64,000 nt of DNA from Gemmatimonadales bacterium (GTDB lineage Bacteria; Gemmatimonadota; Gemmatimonadetes; Gemmatimonadales; GWC2-71-9), in the NCBI GenBank assembly GCA_036004545.1, contig DASYRI010000111.1:16033-80032 (forward strand), written 5' to 3'. A model generated the notes under the pieces. The model worked only from the letters and a program-made list of their open reading frames with translations, was not told where the DNA came from and ran no database searches. Each line of letters starts with the position of its first letter. The first letter of the stretch is position 1. Positions 5,071 to 50,272 of the stretch are shown here, in pieces. The translations under genes and the position numbers were made by a program.

Positions 5071-7218
5071 TCACCCCCCGCGCCGTATCAGCGCGCCGGC
5101 CGCCTCGGCCTCCAGCGGCGCGCCGAGGTGGAATCCCTGGCCCAGCTCGCAGCCGAACGCGATCAGCCGCTCGAGCTGGGTCACCGTCTCGACTCCCTCC
5201 GCGATGACCCCCATTCCCAGCGTCCGGGCCAGGTCCATGATCGAGCCCACGATCTCGAGGTCGGTGCGGCGGAGCCCCATCCGGCGGATAAATGAGTGGT
5301 CAATCTTGAGGGTCTGCACCGGGAGCCGCGGCAGGTAGCTCAAGGACGCGTACCCGGTCCCGAAGTCGTCCATGAGGAGGTCCACCTCCATCTCACGGAG
5401 CTGCTGCAGGGTGCCGGCGGCGCTCTCCAGGTTCTCGAGAAGGGCCGTTTCGGTGATCTCGAGGCGGAGCCGCCGGGGCTCGAGCCGCTCGGCTTGCAAC
5501 ACCGCACGAACTTCCTCCACCAGATGGGCGTCTCCCAGCTGCTTGGCCGAGACGTTCACGCTGACGGGGATGTTGCCGGCGTCCGGGTAAGCCAGCTGCC
5601 AGCGGCGGGCGTAGCGGCACGCTTCGTGGAGCGCCCACAGGCCGATCGGCTGGATCAGGCCGGTCTGCTCGGCGATCGGGATGAACTCGGCCGGCGGGAT
5701 ATCGCCCCGGACGGGGTGATGCCATCGAAGCAGCGCCTCGAACGCCTTCAACCTGCGAGTCTCCAGGTCCACGATCGGCTGGAAGACGAGCGAGAACTCC
5801 TCGCGCTCGAGCGCGCCGTGGAGCTCGCTCACGATCCGGAAGCGGGCGTCGGCCTGGTCGCGCATGGCGATGTCGAAGACCTGGAAGCGGGACGGACCCA
5901 GCGCCTTGGCGCGGTACATGGCGATGTCCGCGTCGCGGAGCAGATCCTCGGCGCGGTGGTGGCCGGGCTCGCTCAGCACCGCGCCGATGCTCGCGGTGGC
6001 GACCAGGTCCCGCCCCGCCACCGGGAACGGCGGCGCGAGGGCTTCATGGATCCGCCGCGCGGCGTGCTCCACGTCGGCGGGCGCCAGCACCTCCTCGAGG
6101 AGCAGGGTGAACTCGTCCCCGCCCAGCCGCGCCACCACGTCTCCCGGCCGCAGGGCGGTCGTGAGGCGGCGGGCGATGTCGGTGAGGAGCTTGTCGCCGG
6201 CCTCGTGGCCCAGGCTGTCGTTCACCAGCTTGAAGTCGTCGAGGTCGAGAAATAGCACCGCGAATCGGTATCCAGGCTCCCGGCGGGCCCGTTCGAGCGC
6301 GCGGGTGACGCATTCGGCGAAGAAGCTCCGGTTGGGCAGATCGGTCAGCGCGTCGTGCAGCGCGGCGCGCTGGAGCCGGGCTTCGTCGAGCTTGCGCTCG
6401 GTGGCATCCCGCGCGATGGAGGAGGCGCCGATGATCCGTCCGCTTTCGTCGCGGATCGGCGAGACGGTCACGGAAACCGGCACCCGGGTGCCGTCCTTGC
6501 GGAGGCGGGTCGTCTCGTAGTGGTTCGCCCTCTCACCGCGGCGGAGCCGGGCCATGATCTCCGGGAGCTCGTCCGGCAGGTCGGGCGGGACGATGATCGC
6601 GATGGAGCGTCCGACCACCTCGTGGGCCCTCCATCCGTAGAGCCGCTCCGCCGCGGGATTCCAGCTGGTGATCACGCCGTCGAGCGTCTTGCCGATGATC
6701 GCATCCGTGGCCGAGCCCACCATCGCCTTGAACTGCGCGGCCATGAGCTCGGCCTCCATGCGGGGCGTGATGTCGCGGGTGATCCGATGGGCATCCACCA
6801 GCCGGCCCGCCACCAACCGCGCGCTGGCGCTGATCAGGCCGTAGCGGATCGAGCCATCCTTGTGGCGGAGCCGGACCTCGACGTCGCGCACCGATTCCCC
6901 GGCGCCGAGTCGGCGCCGGATGCCCGCCGCCTCCCGCGGGTCCACATGGAACTCGGCCACGTTGCGGCCGACGTACTCGTCGCGGGAGTAGCCCAGCATC
7001 TCGACCTCGGCCTGATTGGAGCGCAGGATGGTGCCGTCCGCCGCTTCCCAATGCATGCCCACCATGGCGCGCTCGAAGAAGTCCTCGAGATCCTCGGGGC
7101 GCAGCCCCGATGCCGCCCGGGAGCTCTCCCCGCCGGCCGCGGCCGGGGCTAGGCGCTGAGCCGTCAGGTCGAGGACGAGCTGATCCCGCGTGGGGCGCTT
7201 GGGGGTGGCGGCGGGCAC
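5071..7218 (-). CDS. PAS-PAS-GGDEF-EAL cyclic-di-GMP signalling protein
   Basis: RLGGDEF and FEALLRW motifs, two PAS-like segments, GTG start. Confidence 0.9.
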
Positions 7219-7645
7219 CTAGAGACTCTGATCGGGAAGAGGTATCGGCGCGGCGCAGCAGCCGCCGGCGGGGAGCAGGCTCGCGATCCAACGTTGCCCG
7301 GGGCGGTGCGAGGTGAGCCACTGCCCGAGCGCCGCTTCGATCTTTTTCGCGGCTGGTTTGGGGAGCCGCTGGCCGGGAGCGACGGCGACCGGGCGGAGTC
7401 GCGCGCCCTCATCCGCCTCCCAGCTGCCGGTAAGAGGCGATTGACAGACTTCGGCAACCCGGCGAAGAAATTCGCGCCACTTTGGCGGGACCACGAACTC
7501 GGGGCTCAAGCCTGGCCCTCCGTGTCCGAGTGGGCGAAACAGGCCGCATGCCGCGTGCCATCGTCGGGCCCGTCGCAGGGCGCCGCTTGCGCGGAGCCGG
7601 TTGCGGGATGGGGCAGGGATGCCCTGTTTCGGGGCGCCGGGGGGG

Positions 7646-7790
7646 GACGCAATGACACAATGACGCAATGACGCAAAGACGCCAGGACGCAAAGACGCGA
7701 AGGCGGACGGGCGGACAGGTGGACAAACGGAATGACGGGAGGACGGAAAGACGGAGGTGTTCACCGTTGACCCTTGACCGTTGACGCAGT
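7646..7790. repeat. composite repeat block: GACGCAA-type x~7, GGCGGAC/GGACGG-type, CCGTTGAC-type x3
   Basis: Read directly: 7646-7699, 7700-7757 and 7762-7787. Confidence 0.9.
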
Positions 7791-7798
7791 TCGCGCCG

Positions 7799-9145
7799 TT
7801 ACCCACCCCCGCCCCCACCCCCGACCCACACCACCCGCCACACCCGTCCCCGCTGATCGTCCGTGATGAACAGCGCCCCGTCGGGTCCCTGGGCGAGCCC
7901 GGTGGGCCGATGGGCCGCGCCGCCCGGGTCCCGGGATCTGCCCGCGAAGTCGTCCGCGAAGGTTTCGAAGCTCGGGCCCAGGCGCCCGCCGCTCGCGGGG
8001 ACGAACACCACCTTGTACCCCGCCTGGGGCATCGGCGCGCGATTCCAGGAGCCGTGAAACGCGATGAACGCGCCGCCGCGGTAGCGCGCGGGGAACATCG
8101 CGCCGGCGTAGAGGAGGAGATCATCGGGGCCCCAATGACCGGGGAATCCGATCAGCGGCGGCTTCGCCGCGGCGCAGCGGCCCACGGTGGTGCCATCGCC
8201 CCCGTACTCCGGCGCGAGCACCTTCCGGCCCAGCGCGTTGTCGTGATAACAGTAGGGCCAGCCGAAGTCGTCGCCCCGCTCCACCTGAACCAGCTCCTCG
8301 GACGGCTGCTCGGCGCTCCGGGCGGCGGTGTACAGCGCGGGGAAGAGCGAGGCGAGCCCGTCGCGGCCGTGCGAAGCGGCGTAGAGACGGCGGGTCGTCG
8401 AGTCCCAGGCGATGCCGACGGCATTCCTCAGGCCCGTGGCCCAGCGCTCGCCCCGGCCGGGATGTTGCTGGTGAAGCTTCTCCGCGTCATAGCGCCAGAT
8501 CCCGGCCCGCTCCACGAGCTCGGGGCAGGGGTCGGGTCCGGTGCGCGTGCCGGCGTAGGTGCACACGTTGGAATCGGAGCCCACGTGGACGAACATGCCG
8601 CCGCGATCGTCGAAGGCCAGGCTCCTGCTGATGTGACCCCCGTTTGGGATCCCCTCGACGAGCGTTTCGGGGGCCGCCGCCGCGCTCATCCGATCGGGAC
8701 CGAGGCGGATCCGCTCCACCGTCGTGGTGGTGGAGTAGTAGAGCCAGTCGCCCCGGAGCGCGATGCCGGTGCCGCCGCCGGTCGCGATGCGGCGGACCAG
8801 GTCGGCGCGGCCGTCGCCGGAGGTGTCGCGGAGGATGGCGATCCCGCCAGGCTCCCGGCGGCGGCTGGTGCCCGCGCTGGTGCGGCTTCCGGGCTCCAGC
8901 GCCACGTACACGATGCCGTCCGGCCCGACGACGGCATGGCGGGCCACCCCGAGCGTGTCGGCGAAGATCGCCGCGCAGAAGCCGGCCGGGAGGGAGATCC
9001 CGCCGTTGTCGCGGTCGCACTCCGGATGGTCCGGAGAGGGTCCGGAGCGCGCCGCGCCGCAGGCAAGCAGCGCGGCCGACACGCCCAGGCCCACGCGGGC
9101 GCCGGCGGATCGCCCCGGCGGCGCCGGAGCAGCGGGAAGCCTCAT
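7799..9145 (-). CDS. PQQ-dependent sugar (glucose/sorbosone) dehydrogenase-like beta-propeller, secreted
   Basis: Signal/lipobox-like N-terminus, with DFGWPYCYHD and RPTGLAQGPDGALFITDD motifs. The C-terminus ends in GGGGGGG, encoded by repeat-like sequence. Confidence 0.8.
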   Translation of the reverse strand: MRLPAAPAPPGRSAGARVGLGVSAALLACGAARSGPSPDHPECDRDNGGISLPAGFCAAIFADTLGVARHAVVGPDGIVYVALEPGSRTSAGTSRRREPGGIAILRDTSGDGRADLVRRIATGGGTGIALRGDWLYYSTTTTVERIRLGPDRMSAAAAPETLVEGIPNGGHISRSLAFDDRGGMFVHVGSDSNVCTYAGTRTGPDPCPELVERAGIWRYDAEKLHQQHPGRGERWATGLRNAVGIAWDSTTRRLYAASHGRDGLASLFPALYTAARSAEQPSEELVQVERGDDFGWPYCYHDNALGRKVLAPEYGGDGTTVGRCAAAKPPLIGFPGHWGPDDLLLYAGAMFPARYRGGAFIAFHGSWNRAPMPQAGYKVVFVPASGGRLGPSFETFADDFAGRSRDPGGAAHRPTGLAQGPDGALFITDDQRGRVWRVVWVGGGGGGG

Positions 9146-26499: not shown

Positions 26500-26946
26500 T
26501 CACGCCCCCAGAGCCAGCTCATAGTGCAGGAACTCCTCGTCCCGCCGCCAGCCGAGCGACTCGTAGAGCCGCTGCGCGGTCGCATTGGTGCGCTCGGTGG
26601 CGAGCGACATCCCGCCGGCGCCGGTCTCTATGGCGTGCGCCCGGGCCCGCTCCATGAGCAGTCGGCCGACGCCGGTCCCCCGCTGCCCGGGCATCACGTA
26701 CAGGTCGTTGAGGATCCAGGACCGGCAGAGCGCAACCGACCAGAAGCTGGGGTAGAGCTGGACGAAGCCCGCGGCCGCGTCTTCATCGAGCGCGAGGAAG
26801 ATCACCGACTCGCCGCCCGCGAGGCGCTCGCGCAGGAATCGCTCGGCGCGCGCGGGGTCGGACGGCTGGCGATAGAACTGCCGGTAGGCGTCGAAGAGAG
26901 GGACGAGGCGGGGCAGGTCGCTCGGCGTCGCGCGGCGCACGTCCAT
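26500..26946 (-). CDS. GNAT-family N-acetyltransferase
   Basis: Acetyl-CoA motif (QRGTGVGRLLMERA) and typical length. Confidence 0.85.
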   Translation of the reverse strand: MDVRRATPSDLPRLVPLFDAYRQFYRQPSDPARAERFLRERLAGGESVIFLALDEDAAAGFVQLYPSFWSVALCRSWILNDLYVMPGQRGTGVGRLLMERARAHAIETGAGGMSLATERTNATAQRLYESLGWRRDEEFLHYELALGA

Positions 26947-27011
26947 GAGGGGCCTCCGGGGGGTCCGGTCGGGTCGGAATGACCGCTGAGCCGTAGTATA
27001 TCGTCGCGCAA

Positions 27012-27050
27012 GGGTTGGGGGTTGGGGGTTAGGGGTCAGGGGTCAGGGGG
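27012..27050. repeat. GGGGTTG/GGGGTCA heptamer array (5 units)
   Basis: GGGTTGGGGGTTGGGGGTTAGGGGTCAGGGGTCAGGGGG, upstream of the second ECF sigma gene. Confidence 0.85.
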
Positions 27051-27105
27051 TGCCGTGTCCTATAGAAGTGCCCCGCGGGACACTCATCCGGTGCATGGAG
27101 CCCTG

Positions 27106-27633
27106 ATGAGGCGTGACGAACTCGAGGCTCACCTGGAACGCGAGCACGCCGGCGCCTTTGCCTGGGCCCTGCGCTGTGCGGGCGGCGGGCGCGAGGAGGC
27201 GGAGGACGCCCTCCACGCCGCCTACGAGCGGATCCTCGACGGGCGAGCCGAGTTCGAGGGTCGCTCCAGCTTCCGGACCTGGCTGTTCGGGGTCATCCGC
27301 CTGACCGCGCGCGCGGAGCGGCGGCGTGGGTGGCTCCGGGTGGAGCGGCTTCGCCGGTGGTTCAGCCGAGGCTCGGCCGCCGGATCGGGGCCGGGCACCG
27401 GTTTCGACGCCGGAGCGGACCTGGAACGCCGGGAGACCGCGCGCCGGCTGGGCGACGCGCTGGACCGATTATCGGAGCGGCAACGCCGGATGCTGCATCT
27501 CGTGTTCTACCAGGACCTGAGCGTGCAGGAGGCGGCCGACGTGCTCGGCATGCCGGTGGGAACTGCACGGACGCACTACCAGCGCGGCAAGGCCCGGCTC
27601 CGCGCGCTGCTACAGGGTGAGGACCTCGGATGA
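27106..27633 (+). CDS. ECF-type sigma-70 factor (second)
   Basis: Region 2 (EDALHAAYERILD...FRTWLFGV) and region 4 (LSVQEAADVLGMPVGTARTHYQRG). ATG at 27106. Confidence 0.85.
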   Translation: MRRDELEAHLEREHAGAFAWALRCAGGGREEAEDALHAAYERILDGRAEFEGRSSFRTWLFGVIRLTARAERRRGWLRVERLRRWFSRGSAAGSGPGTGFDAGADLERRETARRLGDALDRLSERQRRMLHLVFYQDLSVQEAADVLGMPVGTARTHYQRGKARLRALLQGEDLG

Positions 27634-28040
27634 TGCCGCTCGACGACGATCGCGATCTCCGCGACCTGTTTCAGGCCGCGCGCCGGGCCGAGGGGGAAGC
27701 CGCGCCGCCCTTCGCGCGGGTGCTCGCCGGCCGGTCGGTCTCCACGCCACGGCGGCGATGGCTCAAATGGACCCTGGCGGCGACCGCGGCGCTGGCGGGC
27801 ATCGTCCTGATCGCGAAAGTGGTCCGTCCACCGAGCGGGCCGGCCCAGGCGCTCGAGATCGCCCGCGAGCTCTCGAGCTGGAGGAGTCCAACGGAGTTTC
27901 TGTTGCGCGTGCCAGGCGCCGAGCTGCTCGGGAACCCGCCCCGGCTGGGCGAGGCGCCGGCCGGCTCACCGCTCAAGGCACTCGACCCCGGCGGTCCGCT
28001 AGGACCGCCGGTCACCCTTTCTAGGAGAATCCGGTCATGA
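27630..28040 (+). CDS. putative anti-sigma / membrane protein
   Basis: ATGA overlap with the sigma stop and a single TM (WTLAATAALAGIVLIA). The call rests on position only. Confidence 0.55.
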   Translation: MMPLDDDRDLRDLFQAARRAEGEAAPPFARVLAGRSVSTPRRRWLKWTLAATAALAGIVLIAKVVRPPSGPAQALEIARELSSWRSPTEFLLRVPGAELLGNPPRLGEAPAGSPLKALDPGGPLGPPVTLSRRIRS

Positions 28041-28546
28041 GGACGACATTATTGGCGGCATACCTTTTCACGACCATTGCGGTCGCCCCGGCGGCGGCGC
28101 AGGGTGGCGGCCACCAGGAGCCCCACGCTTCGCAGGGCCGCGACCACCCTCCTCACGCGGAGCAGGGTCCCGGGCACGCCGAGCCCGATGATCCGATTGC
28201 GCATCTTCTGTTCCCGCCCGAGCTGGTGATCCAGCATGCCCAGGACATCGGGCTCCAGCCGGCGCAGCGGGCCACCATCGTCAGCGCGCTCAAGGAGATG
28301 CAGGGCGACATGATAGAGCTGAAGCTCCAGATGGCGGAGCGGGGCGGGGACCTGGCCAAGCTGATCGGGGAGCCGAAGGTGGACGAGGCGGCGGCCCTGG
28401 CGCAGGTGGACAGGGTGCTGACGCTGGAGCGGGAGGTGAAGCGGCGGCAGATGCAGCTACTCATCCGGATCAAGAACGCGCTCACGCCCGAGCAGCAGGA
28501 GCGGCTGGCCAGGCTCCGGGACCGGGAGCCGGGCCGGCCGGAATGA
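28037..28546 (+). CDS. periplasmic Spy/CpxP/ZraP-like LTXXQ protein with a His-rich N-terminus
   Basis: Signal peptide, a His-rich stretch (GGGHQEPHASQGRDHPPHAEQGPGHAE), and LTPEQQERL (LTXXQ). ATGA overlap with the upstream gene. Confidence 0.7.
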   Translation: MRTTLLAAYLFTTIAVAPAAAQGGGHQEPHASQGRDHPPHAEQGPGHAEPDDPIAHLLFPPELVIQHAQDIGLQPAQRATIVSALKEMQGDMIELKLQMAERGGDLAKLIGEPKVDEAAALAQVDRVLTLEREVKRRQMQLLIRIKNALTPEQQERLARLRDREPGRPE

Positions 28547-28662
28547 ACCGGCGGGGAGGCCGGCCGTGGGGACGACTGGAGCGGCATCAGCATGGGCGGC
28601 GCCTTGGACCGCCCGGGGCAGCATGGTAGATTCAGGTCACTCCAGAACGACAACTCAGAGGC

Positions 28663-29793
28663 GTGACCATGACCGCACTCACTCGGCGGGCAGCACTCCG
28701 TATCGGCCCCACGCTCTCCCTCCTGTTCGCGGCCGGCTGCGCCGCCACTTCAGCCAACGGCGGCCGCACCCACGCCTATTACGTCGCCGCCGACGAGGTG
28801 ATGTGGGACTACGCGCCCGCCGCCGGCAACGGGATCTCGGGCGAGTCGTGGAGCCCGCTCGACAAGGAGTTCGTCGAGCAAAGGCCGGACCGGGTCGGGA
28901 AGGTGTACAAGAAGGCGGTGTACCACGAGTACACCGACAGCACGTTCACCACGCTCAAGCCCCGTCCGGCGGGGTGGGAGCACCTGGGCATCCTGGGCCC
29001 GCTGCTCCGCGCCTCGGTGGGCGACACCTTCCGGATCGTGTTCCGCAACAACGGGACCCATCCCTACAGCATGCACCCGCATGGGGTGATTTACGACAAG
29101 GATTCCGAGGGCGCGCCCTACGCCGACGGCACCACGGGGAAGGACAAGGCGGACGACGGGGTGCCGCCGGGCGGCACCCACGTCTACCTCTGGCCGGTGC
29201 CGGAACGGGCCGGGCCGGCGTCCGGCGACGGCAGCTCGGTGATGTGGATGTACCATTCTCACGTGAATGAGATGCTGGACGTGAACGCCGGGCTCATCGG
29301 GGGGATGATCATCACGGCGCGAGGCAAGGCTCGCGCCGACGGCAGCCCGGTGGACGTGGACCGGGAAATCATGGTGCTCTTCGGGGAATTCGACGAGAAC
29401 TTCAGCTGGTTCAAGGACGAGAACTTCAAGCTGGCGAAGCTGGATATGAAGAAGGTCCCGTCCAATCCGACCTTCGCCGATCCGTTCTACCTGGCGAACC
29501 TCCGGGAGACGATGAACGGGCTCTCGTTCGGCAACCTGCCCGCGCTCAAGGCGAAGAAGGGGGAGCACGTGCGGTGGTACGTCTTCTCGCTCACCGGCTT
29601 CGAGATGCACGCGCCGCACTGGCACGGCGAGACGGTGATCGAGAACCACATGCGGACGGACGTGGCCCCGCTCATCACCATGGAAATGAAGATCGCGGAC
29701 ATGGTGCCCGACAACCCGGGGACCTGGCTCTTCCACTGCCACGTCGCCCCGCATCTGATCGCGGGGATGCAGGCCCTCTTCACCGTCGAATAG
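28663..29793 (+). CDS. two-domain multicopper oxidase, ceruloplasmin/factor-VIII A-domain-like
   Basis: RR-containing lipoprotein signal. Copper motifs HPHG, YHSH, HAPHWHG and HCHVAPHLIAGM. Colinear by eye with a ceruloplasmin repeat unit (YYVAADEVMWDYAP, VYKKAVYHEYTDSTF, DENFSWF). Confidence 0.85.
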   Translation: MTMTALTRRAALRIGPTLSLLFAAGCAATSANGGRTHAYYVAADEVMWDYAPAAGNGISGESWSPLDKEFVEQRPDRVGKVYKKAVYHEYTDSTFTTLKPRPAGWEHLGILGPLLRASVGDTFRIVFRNNGTHPYSMHPHGVIYDKDSEGAPYADGTTGKDKADDGVPPGGTHVYLWPVPERAGPASGDGSSVMWMYHSHVNEMLDVNAGLIGGMIITARGKARADGSPVDVDREIMVLFGEFDENFSWFKDENFKLAKLDMKKVPSNPTFADPFYLANLRETMNGLSFGNLPALKAKKGEHVRWYVFSLTGFEMHAPHWHGETVIENHMRTDVAPLITMEMKIADMVPDNPGTWLFHCHVAPHLIAGMQALFTVE

Positions 29794-29810
29794 CTCGAAA
29801 TAAGTGGAAT

Positions 29811-29879
29811 AGGAGGTAGGAGGTAGCGAGGAGCGAGAAGGGGTGGTGGGGCGGCCCTCCTCGCTACTCGCTACCTCCT
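29811..29879. repeat. inverted GGAGGTA/GCGAGGA-type arms between the convergent MCO and leuS genes
   Basis: AGGAGGTAGGAGGTAGCGAGGAGCGAG ... CCCTCCTCGCTACTCGCTACCTCCT. Hairpin-capable, possibly a bidirectional terminator. Confidence 0.8.
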
Positions 29880-29895
29880 GCGTCCTCGGGCGCCC

Positions 29896-32346
29896 TCAGC
29901 CGACTACGAGATTCAATAGTCGATCCTTCACATACACCACCTTCTTGAGCTCTTTCCCGTCGGTGAACTTCCGCACGGTCGGGTCCCGGCGCGCGGCCGC
30001 CACCACATCGGGCTCCGACGCGCCGCGCACCGCTCGCACCTTGGACCGGGTCTTCCCGTTGATCTGCACGGCGATCTCCATCTCGCTCTCCTCCGTGAGC
30101 CCCGGGTCCCACGACGGCCACGCCGCGTCGAAGACGCTGGTCTTCGAGCCGAGCCGCTCCCAGCACTCTTCGGCGAAATGGGGCGCGAAGGGTGATAACA
30201 TGATCACGAATTCCTTCACGATCTTCCGCTCGGCGCAGTTGACCGCGCGGAGCGCGTTGAGCAGCTCCATCAGCGCCGCGATCGCGGTGTTGTAGGAGAG
30301 CCTCTCCAGGTCTTCGGTCACCCGCTGCTTGGTCTGGTGCCACTTGACCACGATGGCGTGATGCAGCTCGTTGCCCACCAGCGTGGCGCGCTCGCACTGC
30401 TGCACCAGCTCCCAGACCTTGTCGAGGAACCGCCGCGGGCCGGCCAGCCCCTCGTCCCGGAAGTCGCCGCCCTCCTCGTAGGGCCCGAGGAACATCATGT
30501 AGGTCCGGAACGTGTCGGCACCCCACCTCGCGATGTACTGGTCGGGGATGACCACGTTGCCCCGCGTCTTCGACATCTTGGCGCCGTCCTTCACGATGGT
30601 GCCGTGGGCCCGGAACTTCCGGAACGGCTCCTCGAAGGCGAGCCGGCCCTGGTCGTGGAGCACCATCGTGAGGAAGCGGCTGTAGAGGAGGTGGAGCACC
30701 GCGTGCTCGTTCCCGCCGATGTAGCTCGCCACCGGGAGCCAGCGCTTCACTCTCGCGTCGTCGAACGGCCGGTCGTCGAATTCAGTGGAGGTAAACCGCA
30801 GGTAATACCACCCCGAATCGAGGAAGGTGTCGGAGACGTCGGTCTCGCGGTGGGCCGGCTTGCCGCACCCGGGGCAGGCGACCTCGTACCACTCCTTGTG
30901 CCGGGCCAGCGGTGAGATCCCCGAGTCGTCGGGCTGAAAATCCGCAATCACCGGCAGAACCACGGGGAGGTCCTTCTCCGGCACCGGCACCGGGCCGCAG
31001 CCGTCGCAATGGATAATCGGAATCGGCGGCCCCCAGTAGCGCTGCCGCGAGATGCACCAGTCGTGCAGCCGGTAGCGCACCTGGGCCTTGCCATGCCCCT
31101 CCCGCTCCAGCCAGGCCACGATCGCCTTGATTCCCAGGGCGGCCGGCAATTCCGAGAATGCTCCTGAGTTGACCAGCCGGAATCCCTCGGTGTCCACCGC
31201 GGGGCCGTCGAGCGGCGTCGCCCCGGTCTCCCCGGGGCCCGCCAGCACACGGACGATCGGGAGCCGGAACTTCGTGGCGAACTCGAAGTCGCGCTCGTCG
31301 TGGCCCGGGACTCCGCCGATGGCGCCGGTGCCGTACTCCATCAGCACGTAGTCGGCGACCCACACCGGGATCTGTTGGCCGGTGGCGGGGTTTCGCGCGG
31401 TCGAGCCGGTGAAGACGCCGGTCTTCTCCTTCTCGCCCACCTTGCGGGAGACCAGGTCCCTGGCCGCGATGGCCTTCCGGTACGCCTCCATCGCCTCGCG
31501 CCAGGGCGGAACGGTGAGCGCGTCCACCAGCGGGTGCTCGGGTGCCAGCACCAGAAACGTCCCGCCGAAGAGGGTGTCGGGCCGGGTGGTGAAGACCCGG
31601 ATCGGGCCGGCGTCGCTGGGAAACTCGATCTCGGCCCCCTCGCTCCGGCCGATCCAGTTCCGCTGCGCCGTCGCGGTGGACGCCGACCAGTCCATCTTCG
31701 AGGGATCGTCGAGGTTGCCGAGCAGCCGCTCGGCGTAGTCGGTGATCCGGAAGAACCATTGCTCCAGAAAGCGCTGCTCCACCATCGCGCCGCAGCGCTC
31801 GCAGGCGCCGGCGATCACCTGCTCGTTGGCGAGCACCGTCTTGTCGCGCGGGCACCAGTTGACCGCCGCCTTCTTCCGGTACGCCTTCCCGGCGTGGTAC
31901 AGCTGGAGGAACACCCACTGGGTCCACTTGTAGTAGGCCGGGTCGGTGGTCGAGAGCTCGTGCCGCCAGTCGAACATCCCGCCCATCCGGGTGAGCTGGC
32001 GGCGGAAGTTGGCGATGTTCCGGGGGATGAGCTCCGCCGGGTGGGTCCCCATCTTGAGCGCGAAGTTCTCGCTGTGGATGCCGAAGGCGTCGAAACCCAT
32101 CGGCTCGAAGACGGTCTTCCCGCGGAGCCGCTGGAACCGGCCGAACACGTCGGCGCCGGTGAAGGCGAAGACGTTCCCCACGTGCAGTCCCTCGGCGGAG
32201 GGGTAGGGGAACATCATCAGGTTGTAGAAGGGGCGCTCGGCCCGGTCGAGGTCGGGCTCGTTGGTGTGGCGCTCCGCCCAGCGGGCCTGCCACTTGGCCT
32301 CGACCTGGTCGGGCCGGTAGCCGTCGTCGGAATCGTGCGGGCTCAT
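29896..32346 (-). CDS. leuS: leucyl-tRNA synthetase
   Basis: PYPSAEGLHVGN (HIGH region), KMSKTRGN (KMSKS), LeuRS-specific flanks, 816 aa. Confidence 0.97.
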   Translation of the reverse strand: MSPHDSDDGYRPDQVEAKWQARWAERHTNEPDLDRAERPFYNLMMFPYPSAEGLHVGNVFAFTGADVFGRFQRLRGKTVFEPMGFDAFGIHSENFALKMGTHPAELIPRNIANFRRQLTRMGGMFDWRHELSTTDPAYYKWTQWVFLQLYHAGKAYRKKAAVNWCPRDKTVLANEQVIAGACERCGAMVEQRFLEQWFFRITDYAERLLGNLDDPSKMDWSASTATAQRNWIGRSEGAEIEFPSDAGPIRVFTTRPDTLFGGTFLVLAPEHPLVDALTVPPWREAMEAYRKAIAARDLVSRKVGEKEKTGVFTGSTARNPATGQQIPVWVADYVLMEYGTGAIGGVPGHDERDFEFATKFRLPIVRVLAGPGETGATPLDGPAVDTEGFRLVNSGAFSELPAALGIKAIVAWLEREGHGKAQVRYRLHDWCISRQRYWGPPIPIIHCDGCGPVPVPEKDLPVVLPVIADFQPDDSGISPLARHKEWYEVACPGCGKPAHRETDVSDTFLDSGWYYLRFTSTEFDDRPFDDARVKRWLPVASYIGGNEHAVLHLLYSRFLTMVLHDQGRLAFEEPFRKFRAHGTIVKDGAKMSKTRGNVVIPDQYIARWGADTFRTYMMFLGPYEEGGDFRDEGLAGPRRFLDKVWELVQQCERATLVGNELHHAIVVKWHQTKQRVTEDLERLSYNTAIAALMELLNALRAVNCAERKIVKEFVIMLSPFAPHFAEECWERLGSKTSVFDAAWPSWDPGLTEESEMEIAVQINGKTRSKVRAVRGASEPDVVAAARRDPTVRKFTDGKELKKVVYVKDRLLNLVVG

Positions 32347-43920: not shown

Positions 43921-44230
43921 TCAGGTCGTGCCGTTCCCGGCAGGGGCTCTAGGGCTGGCGCCGGCGGGCTCCGGCACGTTGTTCTTTCGTCTCCCGAAGT
44001 ACCGCTTGAAGGCCGCGGCCGCGGCCGCGGCCGCGGCGGCGAGGCCGAGGAGAATGAATTTCTTCAACGCGAGGATGGCGACCCACACCACTTTGAAGAA
44101 TCCGGCTTTGACGGCCGCCGCTCCGGCGATCAGGCCCACGACGCCGTACGTGGCGGCTTTGTCCTTCCCGGGGAGGTAGTCGGCGTAGCGGTGCCCTTCG
44201 TTGAAGTCTACCGCCGCCAGGACTGCAGCT
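43921..44230 (-). pseudogene. 3' remnant of a DUF2167-like membrane-anchored protein gene
   Basis: Only the C-terminal ~100 aa (FNEGHRYADYLPGKDKAATYGVVGLIAGAAAVKAG...FKRYFGRRK) resemble the family as I remember it. Upstream in-frame sequence is unrelated, and composition changes at about 44230. Confidence 0.5.
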
Positions 44231-44435
44231 CCGGAGGACGTTGCTGGCACGGTAGGCGTTATGGTGCGGGTCGGGTAACACGGCGCTGCATCCGCGAGGC
44301 GGGTGGGGCGTTTTTCGTGTCCGACACTGTTCGAGGTCACAAGTTTGGGTGACGAAAATGAGTCAGTCCGTCTGACTTGACAAATTGGCGGAATTCCGTT
44401 ACCGGTGGCCCGAATTCCCGACGGGGGCATTCCTA

Positions 44436-45167
44436 ATGAGATCCTTCGTCACCATGATGATCCTCCTCCTGTTCTCCTCGGGCTGCGGCACCGATTCGAT
44501 GTCTACCCCTCCTGAAGGCAGGAAGCCCCGGTTCGACGTCGACCCATCCAAGGTGACGATCCCGTCCGACGCGACGGCGAGGGACCTCCTCGAGCGACAA
44601 GTAATAGAACAAATCACCGCCCGTGTGAAACCCAAGGAGCAAGCCGCCGTCCTCGAAGCGATTCGCGACGATCGCCGGGGGCGAGCATGGGCTGTCTATG
44701 GCGACAAAGAACTCAGCCGGCTCTTCTCGGTTCTGTATGCGATCCGTGACGCCCGTGCGGACGAAGAAGGCATGCGGAGTCGGCGGGCGCTCGCGTCCTC
44801 CCAGGAGGCGAACGTGCTCGTCGCTGTTGTCGAGTCCTTTCCTGAACCCTCCGTTTTTGCGCAGGTCACCCGCTCGACGGGTCCGCACGCCAGAAATGTG
44901 GTTCTCATTCGGCGAAGTGCGCTCTCGCCAGCGCGGCTTGCGACCGCGCTCGAGGCCGTGTCCGAGTCCCGCCGAATGGACGGGGACTTCCCACGGGAGG
45001 AGCGCATCGTCCTGCTCCGAGACTCGGGTCCCGTCGCACCGACCGTGCATGCCGCGAGAGCCGCCACGATCATTTCCAAACTGCGTTCAGGCGCCCTGCG
45101 GGAGGTGCCTGGGCACGGCACGCTGGTGGCGACCGAGGTGACCCTGCCTCCCGAACCGCGGCGCTAA
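44436..45167 (+). CDS. orphan lipoprotein (cassette gene 1)
   Basis: Lipobox LLLFSSGC and ATG at 44436. No known domain. The C-terminal ~115 aa resemble cassette gene 3. Confidence 0.6.
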   Translation: MRSFVTMMILLLFSSGCGTDSMSTPPEGRKPRFDVDPSKVTIPSDATARDLLERQVIEQITARVKPKEQAAVLEAIRDDRRGRAWAVYGDKELSRLFSVLYAIRDARADEEGMRSRRALASSQEANVLVAVVESFPEPSVFAQVTRSTGPHARNVVLIRRSALSPARLATALEAVSESRRMDGDFPREERIVLLRDSGPVAPTVHAARAATIISKLRSGALREVPGHGTLVATEVTLPPEPRR

Positions 45168-45210
45168 CGCCCTCGTCGATCAGGAAAGCGAATAGAACCG
45201 GAGCCGAACC

Positions 45211-45825
45211 ATGCGTTGGAGAGTCCTTCTCGCTGCGGTGAGTGGATTCGCCGGACTGGGTTTCTTGGCCGATGCGGCAAACCCGTCACGGCTTTGCGCG
45301 GACGGGACGTGCGACGAGGAAGGCGCGGACCTTACCAGTCCTGAGTTCTATACATCCAACGTGCGGGTTGTGATTCGGATCAACAATGTTGGAGACCGAA
45401 CGCTCTATGCGCGAGCGACGCACTGGATCAATCAGAACAAACGTCAGGGCCCCGGCAGCGCGTGGTACGTGCCGGCATCCTGGGACCCGTCGGACAAAGA
45501 CTCGGACGGCAAACAGTGGTTTGCGGAAGGGAATTGGCTGGGACTCTGTACCTGCGTTGGAAGAATCCCCTATATCCGCGCGGCGTCTCCTCCCGGTAAC
45601 TTCGACGGAACCACTTGGTCGGTTCAGACGGAAGAAGACATCGAACAAGACACCGGAGGCGAAGGGGGCGGCGGCGGCGGTGGCGGGGGTGGCAGCGGAG
45701 GAGGGATGACCTGCTACACCCTGACAACCGATTGGTACTGGTACTATCCGGACACCGACACGTACGTATACGATCACTCGGATTACCGGAGCTGGTGCGA
45801 AAACAACGGGGAGTACCAGACGTGA
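45211..45825 (+). CDS. orphan secreted Cys-containing protein with a poly-Gly linker and an aromatic/acidic C-terminal mini-domain (cassette gene 2)
   Basis: GGAG 8 nt upstream of the ATG, a signal peptide, 6 Cys residues, and GGEGGGGGGGGGGSGGG followed by MTCYTLTTDWYWYYPDTDTYVYDHSDYRSWCENNGEYQT. Confidence 0.55.
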   Translation: MRWRVLLAAVSGFAGLGFLADAANPSRLCADGTCDEEGADLTSPEFYTSNVRVVIRINNVGDRTLYARATHWINQNKRQGPGSAWYVPASWDPSDKDSDGKQWFAEGNWLGLCTCVGRIPYIRAASPPGNFDGTTWSVQTEEDIEQDTGGEGGGGGGGGGGSGGGMTCYTLTTDWYWYYPDTDTYVYDHSDYRSWCENNGEYQT

Positions 45826-45874
45826 GAGCAGACGATTGCCGAACCGCCTGTTCGACCCCCGCTGGAGCTTGGGT

Positions 45875-46348
45875 ATGAATCCCAATAAGGTGGTCAACGT
45901 ATCTGCCTGCGCTCTGCTATTGATGTGTCCAGGGGTGGGTGGCAATCTTCTCGCACAGGGAAGCCCTTTTGCTCCACCAAATCTCCCGGACGGGCGAGTG
46001 CCTGTCACACTCGTCCTGGTGAGCAACGGAGCGGCTCCCACCGTGTTCAGACGCGCCGGTCCTGAGCCGAGGAATCTGGTCCTGGTGGATTCCGCGAAGA
46101 TGGATGTTCAGAAGCTTTCCGATGCGATCTTCGGGCTCCTCGTGCTGGAGGCAACCGATCCGGGCGGCACCAATCGCAGCGATAACGAGGCGAGGCGCAT
46201 CAGCCTTGACAAACCGCACCCGGTTTACCGATGGGCGGAAGACGCGCTCATTCGACTGAAAAGCGCCACAAAACAACCGATCAGCGGCCTGGGTGAGCAC
46301 CGAAGTCTTAGAATGTGGTTGCCACTAGTGCGAGGACACGGCCGTTAG
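45875..46348 (+). CDS. orphan secreted protein, distant paralog of cassette gene 1 (cassette gene 3)
   Basis: Signal peptide from ATG 45875. Shared pattern with gene 1: P(S/T)VF, GP..RN(V/L)VL(I/V), ...(I/L)..L(R/K)S......G.G......(V/W)(T/L)(L/P). Confidence 0.5.
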   Translation: MNPNKVVNVSACALLLMCPGVGGNLLAQGSPFAPPNLPDGRVPVTLVLVSNGAAPTVFRRAGPEPRNLVLVDSAKMDVQKLSDAIFGLLVLEATDPGGTNRSDNEARRISLDKPHPVYRWAEDALIRLKSATKQPISGLGEHRSLRMWLPLVRGHGR

Positions 46349-50218: not shown

Positions 50219-50272
50219 CTGTTAACCGTTCGCCGTTCACGGCCCCGTCCCCTGACCCCTGACCCCTGTCCT
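50212..50272. repeat. CCGTTAAC-type units followed by CCCCTGA heptamers
   Basis: Fills the 52-nt gap between convergent genes and includes both stop codons (TAA 50216-50218 and the complement of CTA 50271-50273). Confidence 0.85.

Follow-up and report, generated by a model that had tools for sequence, protein, structure and literature searches.

How is a ceruloplasmin-like oxidase of a soil bacterium related to the eukaryotic ferroxidases, and is it controlled by the stress-response genes that stand in front of it? Both questions arise in a 64,000-nucleotide (nt) stretch of DNA from a soil bacterium of the Gemmatimonadales (hereafter the window; about 70% G+C overall). Here a gene for a two-domain multicopper oxidase (MCO) follows, on the same strand and after a 116-nt spacer, three genes for a sigma factor of the extracytoplasmic function (ECF) type, a candidate membrane anti-sigma factor and a periplasmic LTXXQ protein, together called the triad (Table 1). 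A preliminary description of this DNA had read the oxidase as a single repeat unit of vertebrate ceruloplasmin, and all four genes as a copper-responsive envelope stress regulon. The likeness held up and the regulon probably does not exist: we consider it likely that two separate things lie side by side, a ceruloplasmin-like MCO with a promoter of its own and an independent ECF triad.

We first consider the oxidase. It matched the Pfam models Cu-oxidase_3 (41.6 bits) and Cu-oxidase_2 (56.2 bits), both over cut-off, and fell far under the cut-offs of the NCBIfam models for CueO, CopA, laccase and ascorbate oxidase. In a phmmer search against Protein Data Bank (PDB) sequences, ceruloplasmin was the top match with three alignments per chain, one for each two-domain unit, each covering MCO residues 34–375 at 201–235 bits (domain E-values of 1e-58 to 1e-68). 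Coagulation factors V and VIII (FV and FVIII) ranked next, and the bacterial small laccases aligned over residues 109–228 only (E = 1e-13). An AlphaFold2 monomer model built from 42 family sequences (predicted local distance difference test score, pLDDT, 90; predicted template modelling score, pTM, 0.86) consisted of two beta-sandwich domains, covering approximately residues 36–232 and 233–376. It superposed on ceruloplasmin with a template modelling score (TM) of 0.84–0.86, a root-mean-square deviation of 1.9–2.5 Å and 36% identity, compared with a TM of 0.54 and 19% identity on laccases of the Streptomyces small laccase (SLAC) type (Foldseek). The peptides quoted in the preliminary description occur in the MCO translation, and the human ceruloplasmin strings set beside them occur in the phmmer alignments. 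With a full-length match to each of the three ceruloplasmin units and a TM of about 0.85, the MCO is a single ceruloplasmin-like unit, and the alignments and the predicted model together place this likeness decisively above chance. The MCO lies much nearer to ceruloplasmin, hephaestin and FV/FVIII than to CueO or to laccases, the small ones included; with ceruloplasmin, hephaestin and the FV/FVIII A domains it shares a two-cupredoxin repeat unit that is colinear over about 340 residues. It differs in number: hmmsearch found three units in the eukaryotic six-domain proteins, ceruloplasmin being three fused units with six cupredoxin domains, and one in the family of the window MCO.

The complete set of copper ligands ascribed to the protein is likewise there. 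All 12 are present, in the motifs HPH(G) (138–141), HSH (198/200), HxxHxH (316/319/321) and HCHxxxHxxxxM (358–369), and 40 of 42 aligned family members retain every one of them. The type 1 (T1) ligands H316, C359, H364 and M369 lie within domain 2 together with one trinuclear half-site (H319, H321, H358 and H360), while the other half-site lies in domain 1 (H138, H140, H198 and H200). Only two cysteines occur in the protein, and domain 1 cannot form a T1 site because the cysteine other than C359, C26, belongs to the lipobox. Having two cupredoxin domains with T1 copper in the C-terminal domain alone, the protein is a type-B two-domain MCO as defined in PMC13151041. The T1 motif also sits in the even (C-terminal) domain in ceruloplasmin, and the half-sites of the MCO have their counterparts in ceruloplasmin domains 1 and 6. 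Two single-unit relatives, P0232 and P0256, are missing most copper ligands (with, for example, QQHG... and a serine for the T1 cysteine) and are probably non-catalytic derivatives, judging by these replacements.

The one trinuclear cluster of ceruloplasmin lies between domains 1 and 6, which belong to different repeat units, and the half-sites at its other unit–unit interfaces have decayed (phmmer alignments). Since the split half-sites of a single unit can be completed only between chains, the window MCO is expected to be a homotrimer. Two-domain MCOs have been reported to form trimers in which the trinuclear site lies at the protomer interface (PMC13151041; PMC3192119), and by analogy we infer a head-to-tail homotrimer that would hold 12 Cu in three T1 and three trinuclear sites. 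All half-sites of the MCO are intact, and the predicted trimer would thus contain three trinuclear clusters where ceruloplasmin contains one. The plan is that of SLAC (LccED superfamily K) and of Cellvibrio CjMCO (superfamily N, set beside the window MCO family by description only; PMC13151041), which are exported proteins with two cupredoxin domains, a C-terminal T1 site and trinuclear ligands split between domains so that a homotrimer is expected. The SLAC-type enzymes nevertheless differ in sequence and fold (120 aligned residues, 19–20% identity), and the window MCO exceeds SLAC by about 90 residues and has ceruloplasmin-specific insertions. AlphaFold2 applied to three linked copies of residues 27–376 as one chain was uninformative (pLDDT 28, pTM 0.22).

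The N-terminus of the MCO carries a signal peptide and a lipobox with Cys26, and a lipobox cysteine occurs in most family N-termini, features from which we predict that the MCO is probably an exported lipoprotein; a bacterial lipoprotein signal is a further difference from ceruloplasmin. A point on the other side is TRRAALR in the same N-terminus, a possible twin-arginine (Tat) motif that lacks conservation in the family. The gene would thus encode an exported, lipid-anchored blue MCO of one ceruloplasmin-like unit, expressed from its own sigma70-like promoter. Electrons from the substrate would enter at T1 and cross the H-C-H bridge to the interfacial trinuclear cluster, where O2 would be converted to water.

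We then asked how widely such proteins occur. A pattern-seeded scan (one genome per species) recovered relatives in at least 433 genomes, of which the best 80 were from Gemmatimonadota and Acidobacteriota (Terriglobia), plus one Acidimicrobiia. An exhaustive HMMER search yielded 646 clusters (50% identity) at E≤1e-30, with the family spanning Gemmatimonadota, Acidobacteriota, Actinomycetota and some protists. The top scorers were eukaryotic six-domain proteins from a glaucophyte, Paulinella, molluscs, an annelid and fish (HEPHL1); single-unit forms were also found in a stramenopile alga and an amoebozoan. Elsewhere the ceruloplasmin-like unit is fused to other modules, namely an N-terminal DinB_2 domain (P0205), TPR repeats (P0207) and an EGF-like module (P0264, from the amoebozoan Soliformovum). 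Our literature search found no paper describing the large bacterial family, and public records carry generic names. A 2011 survey of bacterial two-domain laccases listed none in Acidobacteria (PMC3192119). The Fusarium oxysporum protein FOYG_17127 has been described as a two-domain 'ceruloplasmin homologue', modelled as a trimer and with bacterial and archaeal relatives (PMC6994591). By that description it is also a single unit of about 370 amino acids (aa) with similar ligand spacing and prokaryotic homologues, although its own trinuclear ligands are degenerate (D185, Q352) and the homologues reported number 17 (PMC6994591). The window MCO is uncharacterised and is the closest bacterial relative of the ceruloplasmin units found in this analysis.

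To place the MCO among these relatives, we divided the six-domain proteins into their units and computed a bootstrapped neighbour-joining tree without an outgroup. The MCO fell in a clade of single-unit proteins (bootstrap 88/100) and not among ordinary CueO/laccase MCOs, a placement that the preliminary description had named as fatal to its reading. All 63 metazoan units formed one group that excludes the MCO (79/100). A truncated ceruloplasmin or hephaestin, gained from a eukaryote by horizontal transfer and not descended from a lineage older than the six-domain proteins, would account for identities that are unusually high for a bacterium–animal pair (34–37% to metazoan units, 34–45% to eukaryotic units). 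We regard this origin as highly improbable. The clade of the window MCO is monophyletic and stands apart from the metazoan units, and the family is carried by the several hundred species genomes counted above, over three bacterial phyla. The MCO is equally near all unit positions and favours none; it has all three half-sites, a combination that is not preserved in any eukaryotic unit; and its G+C content is native (66.6% in the 28–30 kb bin versus about 70% overall). The MCO therefore does not belong with ordinary laccases or CueO, nor is it a piece of an animal gene.

Trimeric two-domain MCOs as ancestors of ceruloplasmin are an old idea, attributed to Nakamura 2003 in PMC3600357 and PMC3192119, and a single ancestral six-domain protein was proposed in PMC3600357. 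One possible history, which we put forward tentatively and at rather less than even confidence, is that the single-unit bacterial and protist family is the surviving pre-fusion lineage and that six-domain ferroxidases arose by several independent triplications, in metazoa, in the chlorophyte Fox1-like proteins and in Paulinella and glaucophytes; some of these may have followed bacterium-to-eukaryote transfer. The Paulinella units are each other's closest relatives (bootstrap 100/100; 58–63% identical), and their best outside matches are bacterial single units (47–48%). Units of different eukaryotic six-domain groups showed no position-by-position orthology, whereas the control comparison of FV/FVIII with the ferroxidases did; the proteins compared with the metazoan ones were P0123 (Paulinella micropora), P0122 (Gloeochaete) and P0136/P0150 (chlorophytes). 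These unit relations, together with the single group formed by the metazoan units (79/100), hint at repeated independent triplications rather than one six-domain ancestor. Counting against independent triplications, gene conversion between repeats is an alternative explanation of the same relations.

We next considered whether the MCO shares the ferroxidase activity of its eukaryotic relatives, by mapping the Fe(II)-site residues of ceruloplasmin onto it (1KCW mature numbering). E935 corresponded to L277, H940 to E282 and D1025 to P363, and E272 and E971 fell in a gap; the whole Gemmatimonadota/Acidobacteriota clade reads L/V/I-E-P at the positions of E935, H940 and D1025. Because the E-H-D residues are L-E-P, ceruloplasmin-type ferroxidase activity cannot be assumed. 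As a best guess, the enzyme would oxidise metal ions or small reductants with a specificity of its own and would not be a ceruloplasmin-type ferroxidase. The conserved E282 and E314 align with positions that flank T1 copper in ceruloplasmin, and a cation substrate is a plausible guess; a cation site made of these two residues is speculative.

A true ferroxidase of the ceruloplasmin/hephaestin type, oxidising Fe(II) at the same cation-holding site for iron acquisition or detoxification, seems unlikely to us. The high similarity to ceruloplasmin and hephaestin would suit it, as would the label 'hephaestin' that the Joint Genome Institute (JGI) gives to some members; yet other sources name members 'manganese oxidase', both being automatic annotation, so that database names are no evidence. 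Four more distant single-unit proteins, P0199 (Frankiales), P0243, P0246 and P0268 (Tribonema minus), keep the E-H-D triad and all copper ligands, a retention that also suits a ferroxidase and that may mean, on these alignments, that the ferroxidase site predates the six-domain fusion. The window protein and its clade, however, have the replacements and the gap described above. As for gene neighbourhoods, at locus L004 (1361–3120) the MCO gene lies about 3 kb from a gene for an iron/manganese transporter of the VIT1 family and a different ECF sigma factor, in one Gemmatimonadales genome only, but iron-transport genes are not among the conserved MCO neighbours.

We next evaluated the proposed link between triad and oxidase by searching 85 MCO loci with the window neighbour proteins (tblastn). 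The triad adjoins an MCO only within one syntenic Gemmatimonadales neighbourhood, S58 peptidase–GNAT...leuS, and its position there varies. It directly precedes the MCO in the window, L001/L002 and L089, is separated from it by another gene at L079 and lies downstream of it at L008; the MCO stands alone in the same neighbourhood at L006, L007, L010, L012 and L055. With the LTXXQ protein as the starting point, triads followed by a 350–384-aa lipoprotein, with no MCO, were found at L086 and L087 (in the same syntenic neighbourhood) and at L088 (in a different one). The gene at +2 after sigma encodes a PF13801 protein in the window, L001, L086, L088 and L089. The lipoproteins are homologous across L086–L088 and the extra gene of L079, have no Pfam domain and are missing from the window (L079:4816-5901, L086:5438-6541, L087:5473-6525, and L088:5728-6882 and 6892-8004, the last locus having two tandem copies after the triad; also L092). 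Clustering of open reading frames (ORFs) over the 85 loci gave no conserved neighbour apart from genes explained by lineage synteny and widespread paralogues (Ser/Thr kinases, for example). The simplest history would begin with the order triad–lipoprotein–MCO, followed by independent losses; the 116-nt junction in the window would then be the scar of a lipoprotein loss that left the triad beside the MCO.

The promoter regions gave a similar picture. Upstream of the sigma gene we found a conserved block, TGTCCTAT-N13-GGGACACTCAT, identical in four of the four triad loci aligned and unique in the window even when three mismatches are allowed. Among the 85 MCO loci it occurs at triad loci only (L001/L002, L008 and L079), moving together with the triad at L008; it is never directly upstream of any MCO and is absent from all triad-less MCO loci. 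Of 19 exact metagenome matches, 14 lie 18–41 nt upstream of a homologous sigma gene, and some of the sigma factors behind these copies are only 41–49% identical. Two of the five matches without a detected sigma gene resemble divergent sigma leaders. We took the other three as chance, two being one AT-rich palindrome from another organism and one preceding a Hint-like ORF, and rejected a possible second copy near 50.25 kb in the window, which lies in a convergent intergenic region beside a G-rich repeat with its second half missing. From its conservation and placement, the block is a candidate for the ECF-type promoter or operator by which the triad would regulate itself. A search for an ECF promoter motif upstream of both 27106 and 28663, as the preliminary description had proposed, thus found a conserved block at the first position and no copy of it at the second.

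The MCO instead appears to have its own sigma70-like promoter. The pattern cT[GA]GACa-N16-TA[GC]ATT lies upstream of the orthologous MCO in nine of nine syntenic loci, whether the triad is present or not, and a regular-expression scan recovered eight syntenic loci plus the distant L048, with zero matches in in-gene control regions. This promoter emerged by comparative alignment; a generic sigma70 promoter scan of 26800–30000 gave zero matches at threshold, and GACA-N15-17-TASATT gave zero matches in the window, whose own copy reads GACC.

On this evidence the triad probably does not regulate the MCO. We judge it improbable that the sigma factor, anti-sigma factor, His-rich LTXXQ protein and MCO form one metal-responsive envelope-stress regulon, coupled through an ECF promoter or by read-through, as first supposed. 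The genes do share one strand with no terminator-like fold in the 116 nt before the MCO, and the same gene order recurs in L001, L089, L100 and L105, but every case lies in the one GNAT...leuS neighbourhood, because of which the co-occurrence is explained by shared descent; within it the triad may be absent, downstream or a gene away, and no triad of this kind occurs at about 70 further MCO loci. Triads also exist without any MCO, the conserved fourth gene in relatives being the lipoprotein. Nor do the promoters join the two, the sigma-upstream motif being missing from the MCO upstream region and the MCO promoter unchanged with or without the triad. A role in metals could be read from the naming of PF13801 proteins as heavy-metal sensors, from the His-rich tail of the window copy and from the heavy-metal stress to which the groups ECF281 and ECF290 are thought to be tied. 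The tail, however, does not track MCO adjacency, being absent at L001, L079 and L089.

Three points speak against treating the MCO and the triad as separate. Several contigs from a single lineage (L001, L079, L089, L100 and L105) carry both, a recurrence that could come from weak functional coupling beyond shared descent. Read-through from triad to MCO is possible in this genome because the LTXXQ–MCO spacer has no terminator-like structure (z = 0.04 versus shuffles; a pattern scan of the spacer gave nothing useful). Finally, the sigma70 reading of the MCO promoter comes from the consensus alone.

The triad itself matches a described layout. Its first product is an ECF sigma factor, as had been proposed: it has Sigma70_r2 and Sigma70_r4_2 (regions 2 and 4) without region 3, and scored 76.2 bits on TIGR02937 (sigma70-ECF; cut-off 42.9). 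The second has an approximately 40-aa cytoplasmic N-terminus, a single transmembrane helix and a tail of about 65 aa in the periplasm, and is kept at +1 in relatives with invariant W-x-S-P-T-x-F-L-L and P-x-x-A-x-x-P blocks. It had no Pfam match, hence no Pfam anti-sigma domain, and is a candidate anti-sigma factor from its position and topology only. The third scored 35.7 bits on PF13801 (Metal_resist; cut-off 29.2, E = 1.1e-8) and has a signal peptide, two LTXXQ-type motifs (LQPAQ 73–77 and LTPEQ 149–153) and a His-rich N-terminal tail (residues ~25–56, seven His), in line with its first description as a Spy/CpxP/ZraP-like periplasmic protein with a His-rich N-terminus. It scored far under the NCBIfam cut-offs for Spy (23 versus 174) and CpxP (18 versus 238), and its helical core (residues 69–157) matched Spy in the PDB weakly (E = 0.05–0.7). 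Sources label the protein 'periplasmic heavy metal sensor' or 'Spy/CpxP family chaperone'. The His-rich tail occurs in about 10 of 120 LTXXQ homologues and, to judge from this distribution, would be a recent, lineage-specific addition, independent of MCO adjacency.

In the ECF281 and ECF290 groups (formerly ECF20), relatives of CnrH, the sigma gene is followed by an anti-sigma gene at +1 and a PF13801 'heavy-metal resistance protein' at +2 (PMC7826278). This is the exact order of the window triad, the likeness being one of gene order, although the window anti-sigma candidate has neither the zinc-finger domain of ECF281 nor the RskA-like domain of ECF290 (Pfam). CnrYXH (ECF291; PMC7826278) has another gene order, and the LTXXQ protein gave no CnrX sequence match in the PDB; nor did the literature search turn up a paper in favour of such a link. 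The LTXXQ protein resembles Spy/CpxP/ZraP in its signal peptide, paired motifs and weakly matching helical core, and differs in its lineage-specific tail and in being paired with an ECF/anti-sigma couple and not with a two-component system. The region 27056–28546 would then be a self-contained ECF module, probably autoregulated, in which the membrane protein would hold the sigma factor and the periplasmic LTXXQ protein would sense or buffer an envelope or metal signal. As a routine example of a described ECF layout, it adds little.

All four ORFs lie where the preliminary description had put them, with a 4-nt overlap at each junction within the triad and the 116-nt gap before the MCO (Table 1). 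The start of the sigma gene is backed by an upstream GGAG and by orthologue alignment. The length of 376 aa given for the MCO holds for the ORF and is probably not that of the product: an ATG at 28669 sits 9 nt past AGAGG and gives 374 aa, the form in the public record P0001, and probably is the true start. The window MCO is 100% identical to P0001, a protein of a Gemmatimonadales metagenome-assembled genome. Downstream, the RNA fold of 29794–29895 reached -63 kcal/mol (z = -5.9 versus shuffles), a stability that none of 200 shuffled sequences equalled, and its hairpin is probably a bidirectional terminator. An Rfam search of the window gave zero matches.

Table 1. Features of the oxidase locus, in window coordinates
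Feature	Coordinates	Strand	Basis or position
GNAT acetyltransferase gene	26500-26946	minus	divergent from sigma gene, left flank
TGTCCTAT-N13-GGGACACTCAT	27056-27087	+	conserved, ~19 nt upstream of sigma start codon
ECF-type sigma-70 factor, 175 aa	27106-27633	+	Sigma70_r2 + Sigma70_r4_2; TIGR02937
Candidate membrane anti-sigma factor, 136 aa	27630-28040	+	position and topology
LTXXQ / PF13801 (Metal_resist, Spy/CpxP-like) periplasmic protein, 169 aa	28037-28546	+	PF13801
Sigma70-like MCO promoter, TTGGAC-17 nt-TAGATT	28604-28632	+	ends 36 nt before ATG 28669
Ceruloplasmin-like type-B two-domain MCO, 376-aa ORF	28663-29793	+	Cu-oxidase_3 + Cu-oxidase_2
Long GC-rich hairpin between convergent MCO and leuS genes	29811-29886		RNA fold
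leuS	29896-32346	minus	convergent with MCO gene, right flank

Some further features were seen around the locus. Just upstream of the minus-strand GNAT gene, a GTAGTATATCG block (26994–27004) recurs in the orthologous spacers of L001, L008, L012 and L079; its reverse complement holds TATACT, and it is probably the -10 element of a GNAT promoter. Between the GNAT and sigma genes lies a G-rich heptad repeat, (GGGGTYR)n, in five to six copies (27011–27049, plus strand), with a second occurrence in a convergent intergenic region (50249–50266, minus strand). Matches number 5, versus 0.02 expected by chance. The orthologous spacers of L001, L008 and L079 do not have the repeat, and such a pattern could form a G-quadruplex. 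Farther off, positions 44001–46000 have a G+C content of 62.5%, versus about 70% elsewhere, with a DUF2167 fragment and several ORFs without a Pfam match, and may be foreign or decaying DNA.

Ceruloplasmin has long been thought to be the product of a fusion of a trimeric two-domain oxidase, and to our knowledge the two-domain enzymes solved so far are only its remote relatives. A small bacterial protein that is 34–45% identical to the eukaryotic units and keeps every copper half-site offers a practical model of the pre-fusion state. Questions for such a model include the shape of the pre-fusion trimer, the loss of two of the three trinuclear clusters and the time at which the iron site originated, the last of these arising because some single-unit relatives already carry E-H-D. 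Soil Acidobacteriota and Gemmatimonadota, moreover, have many members of this family, whose substrate may matter for the metal or humic redox chemistry of soils.

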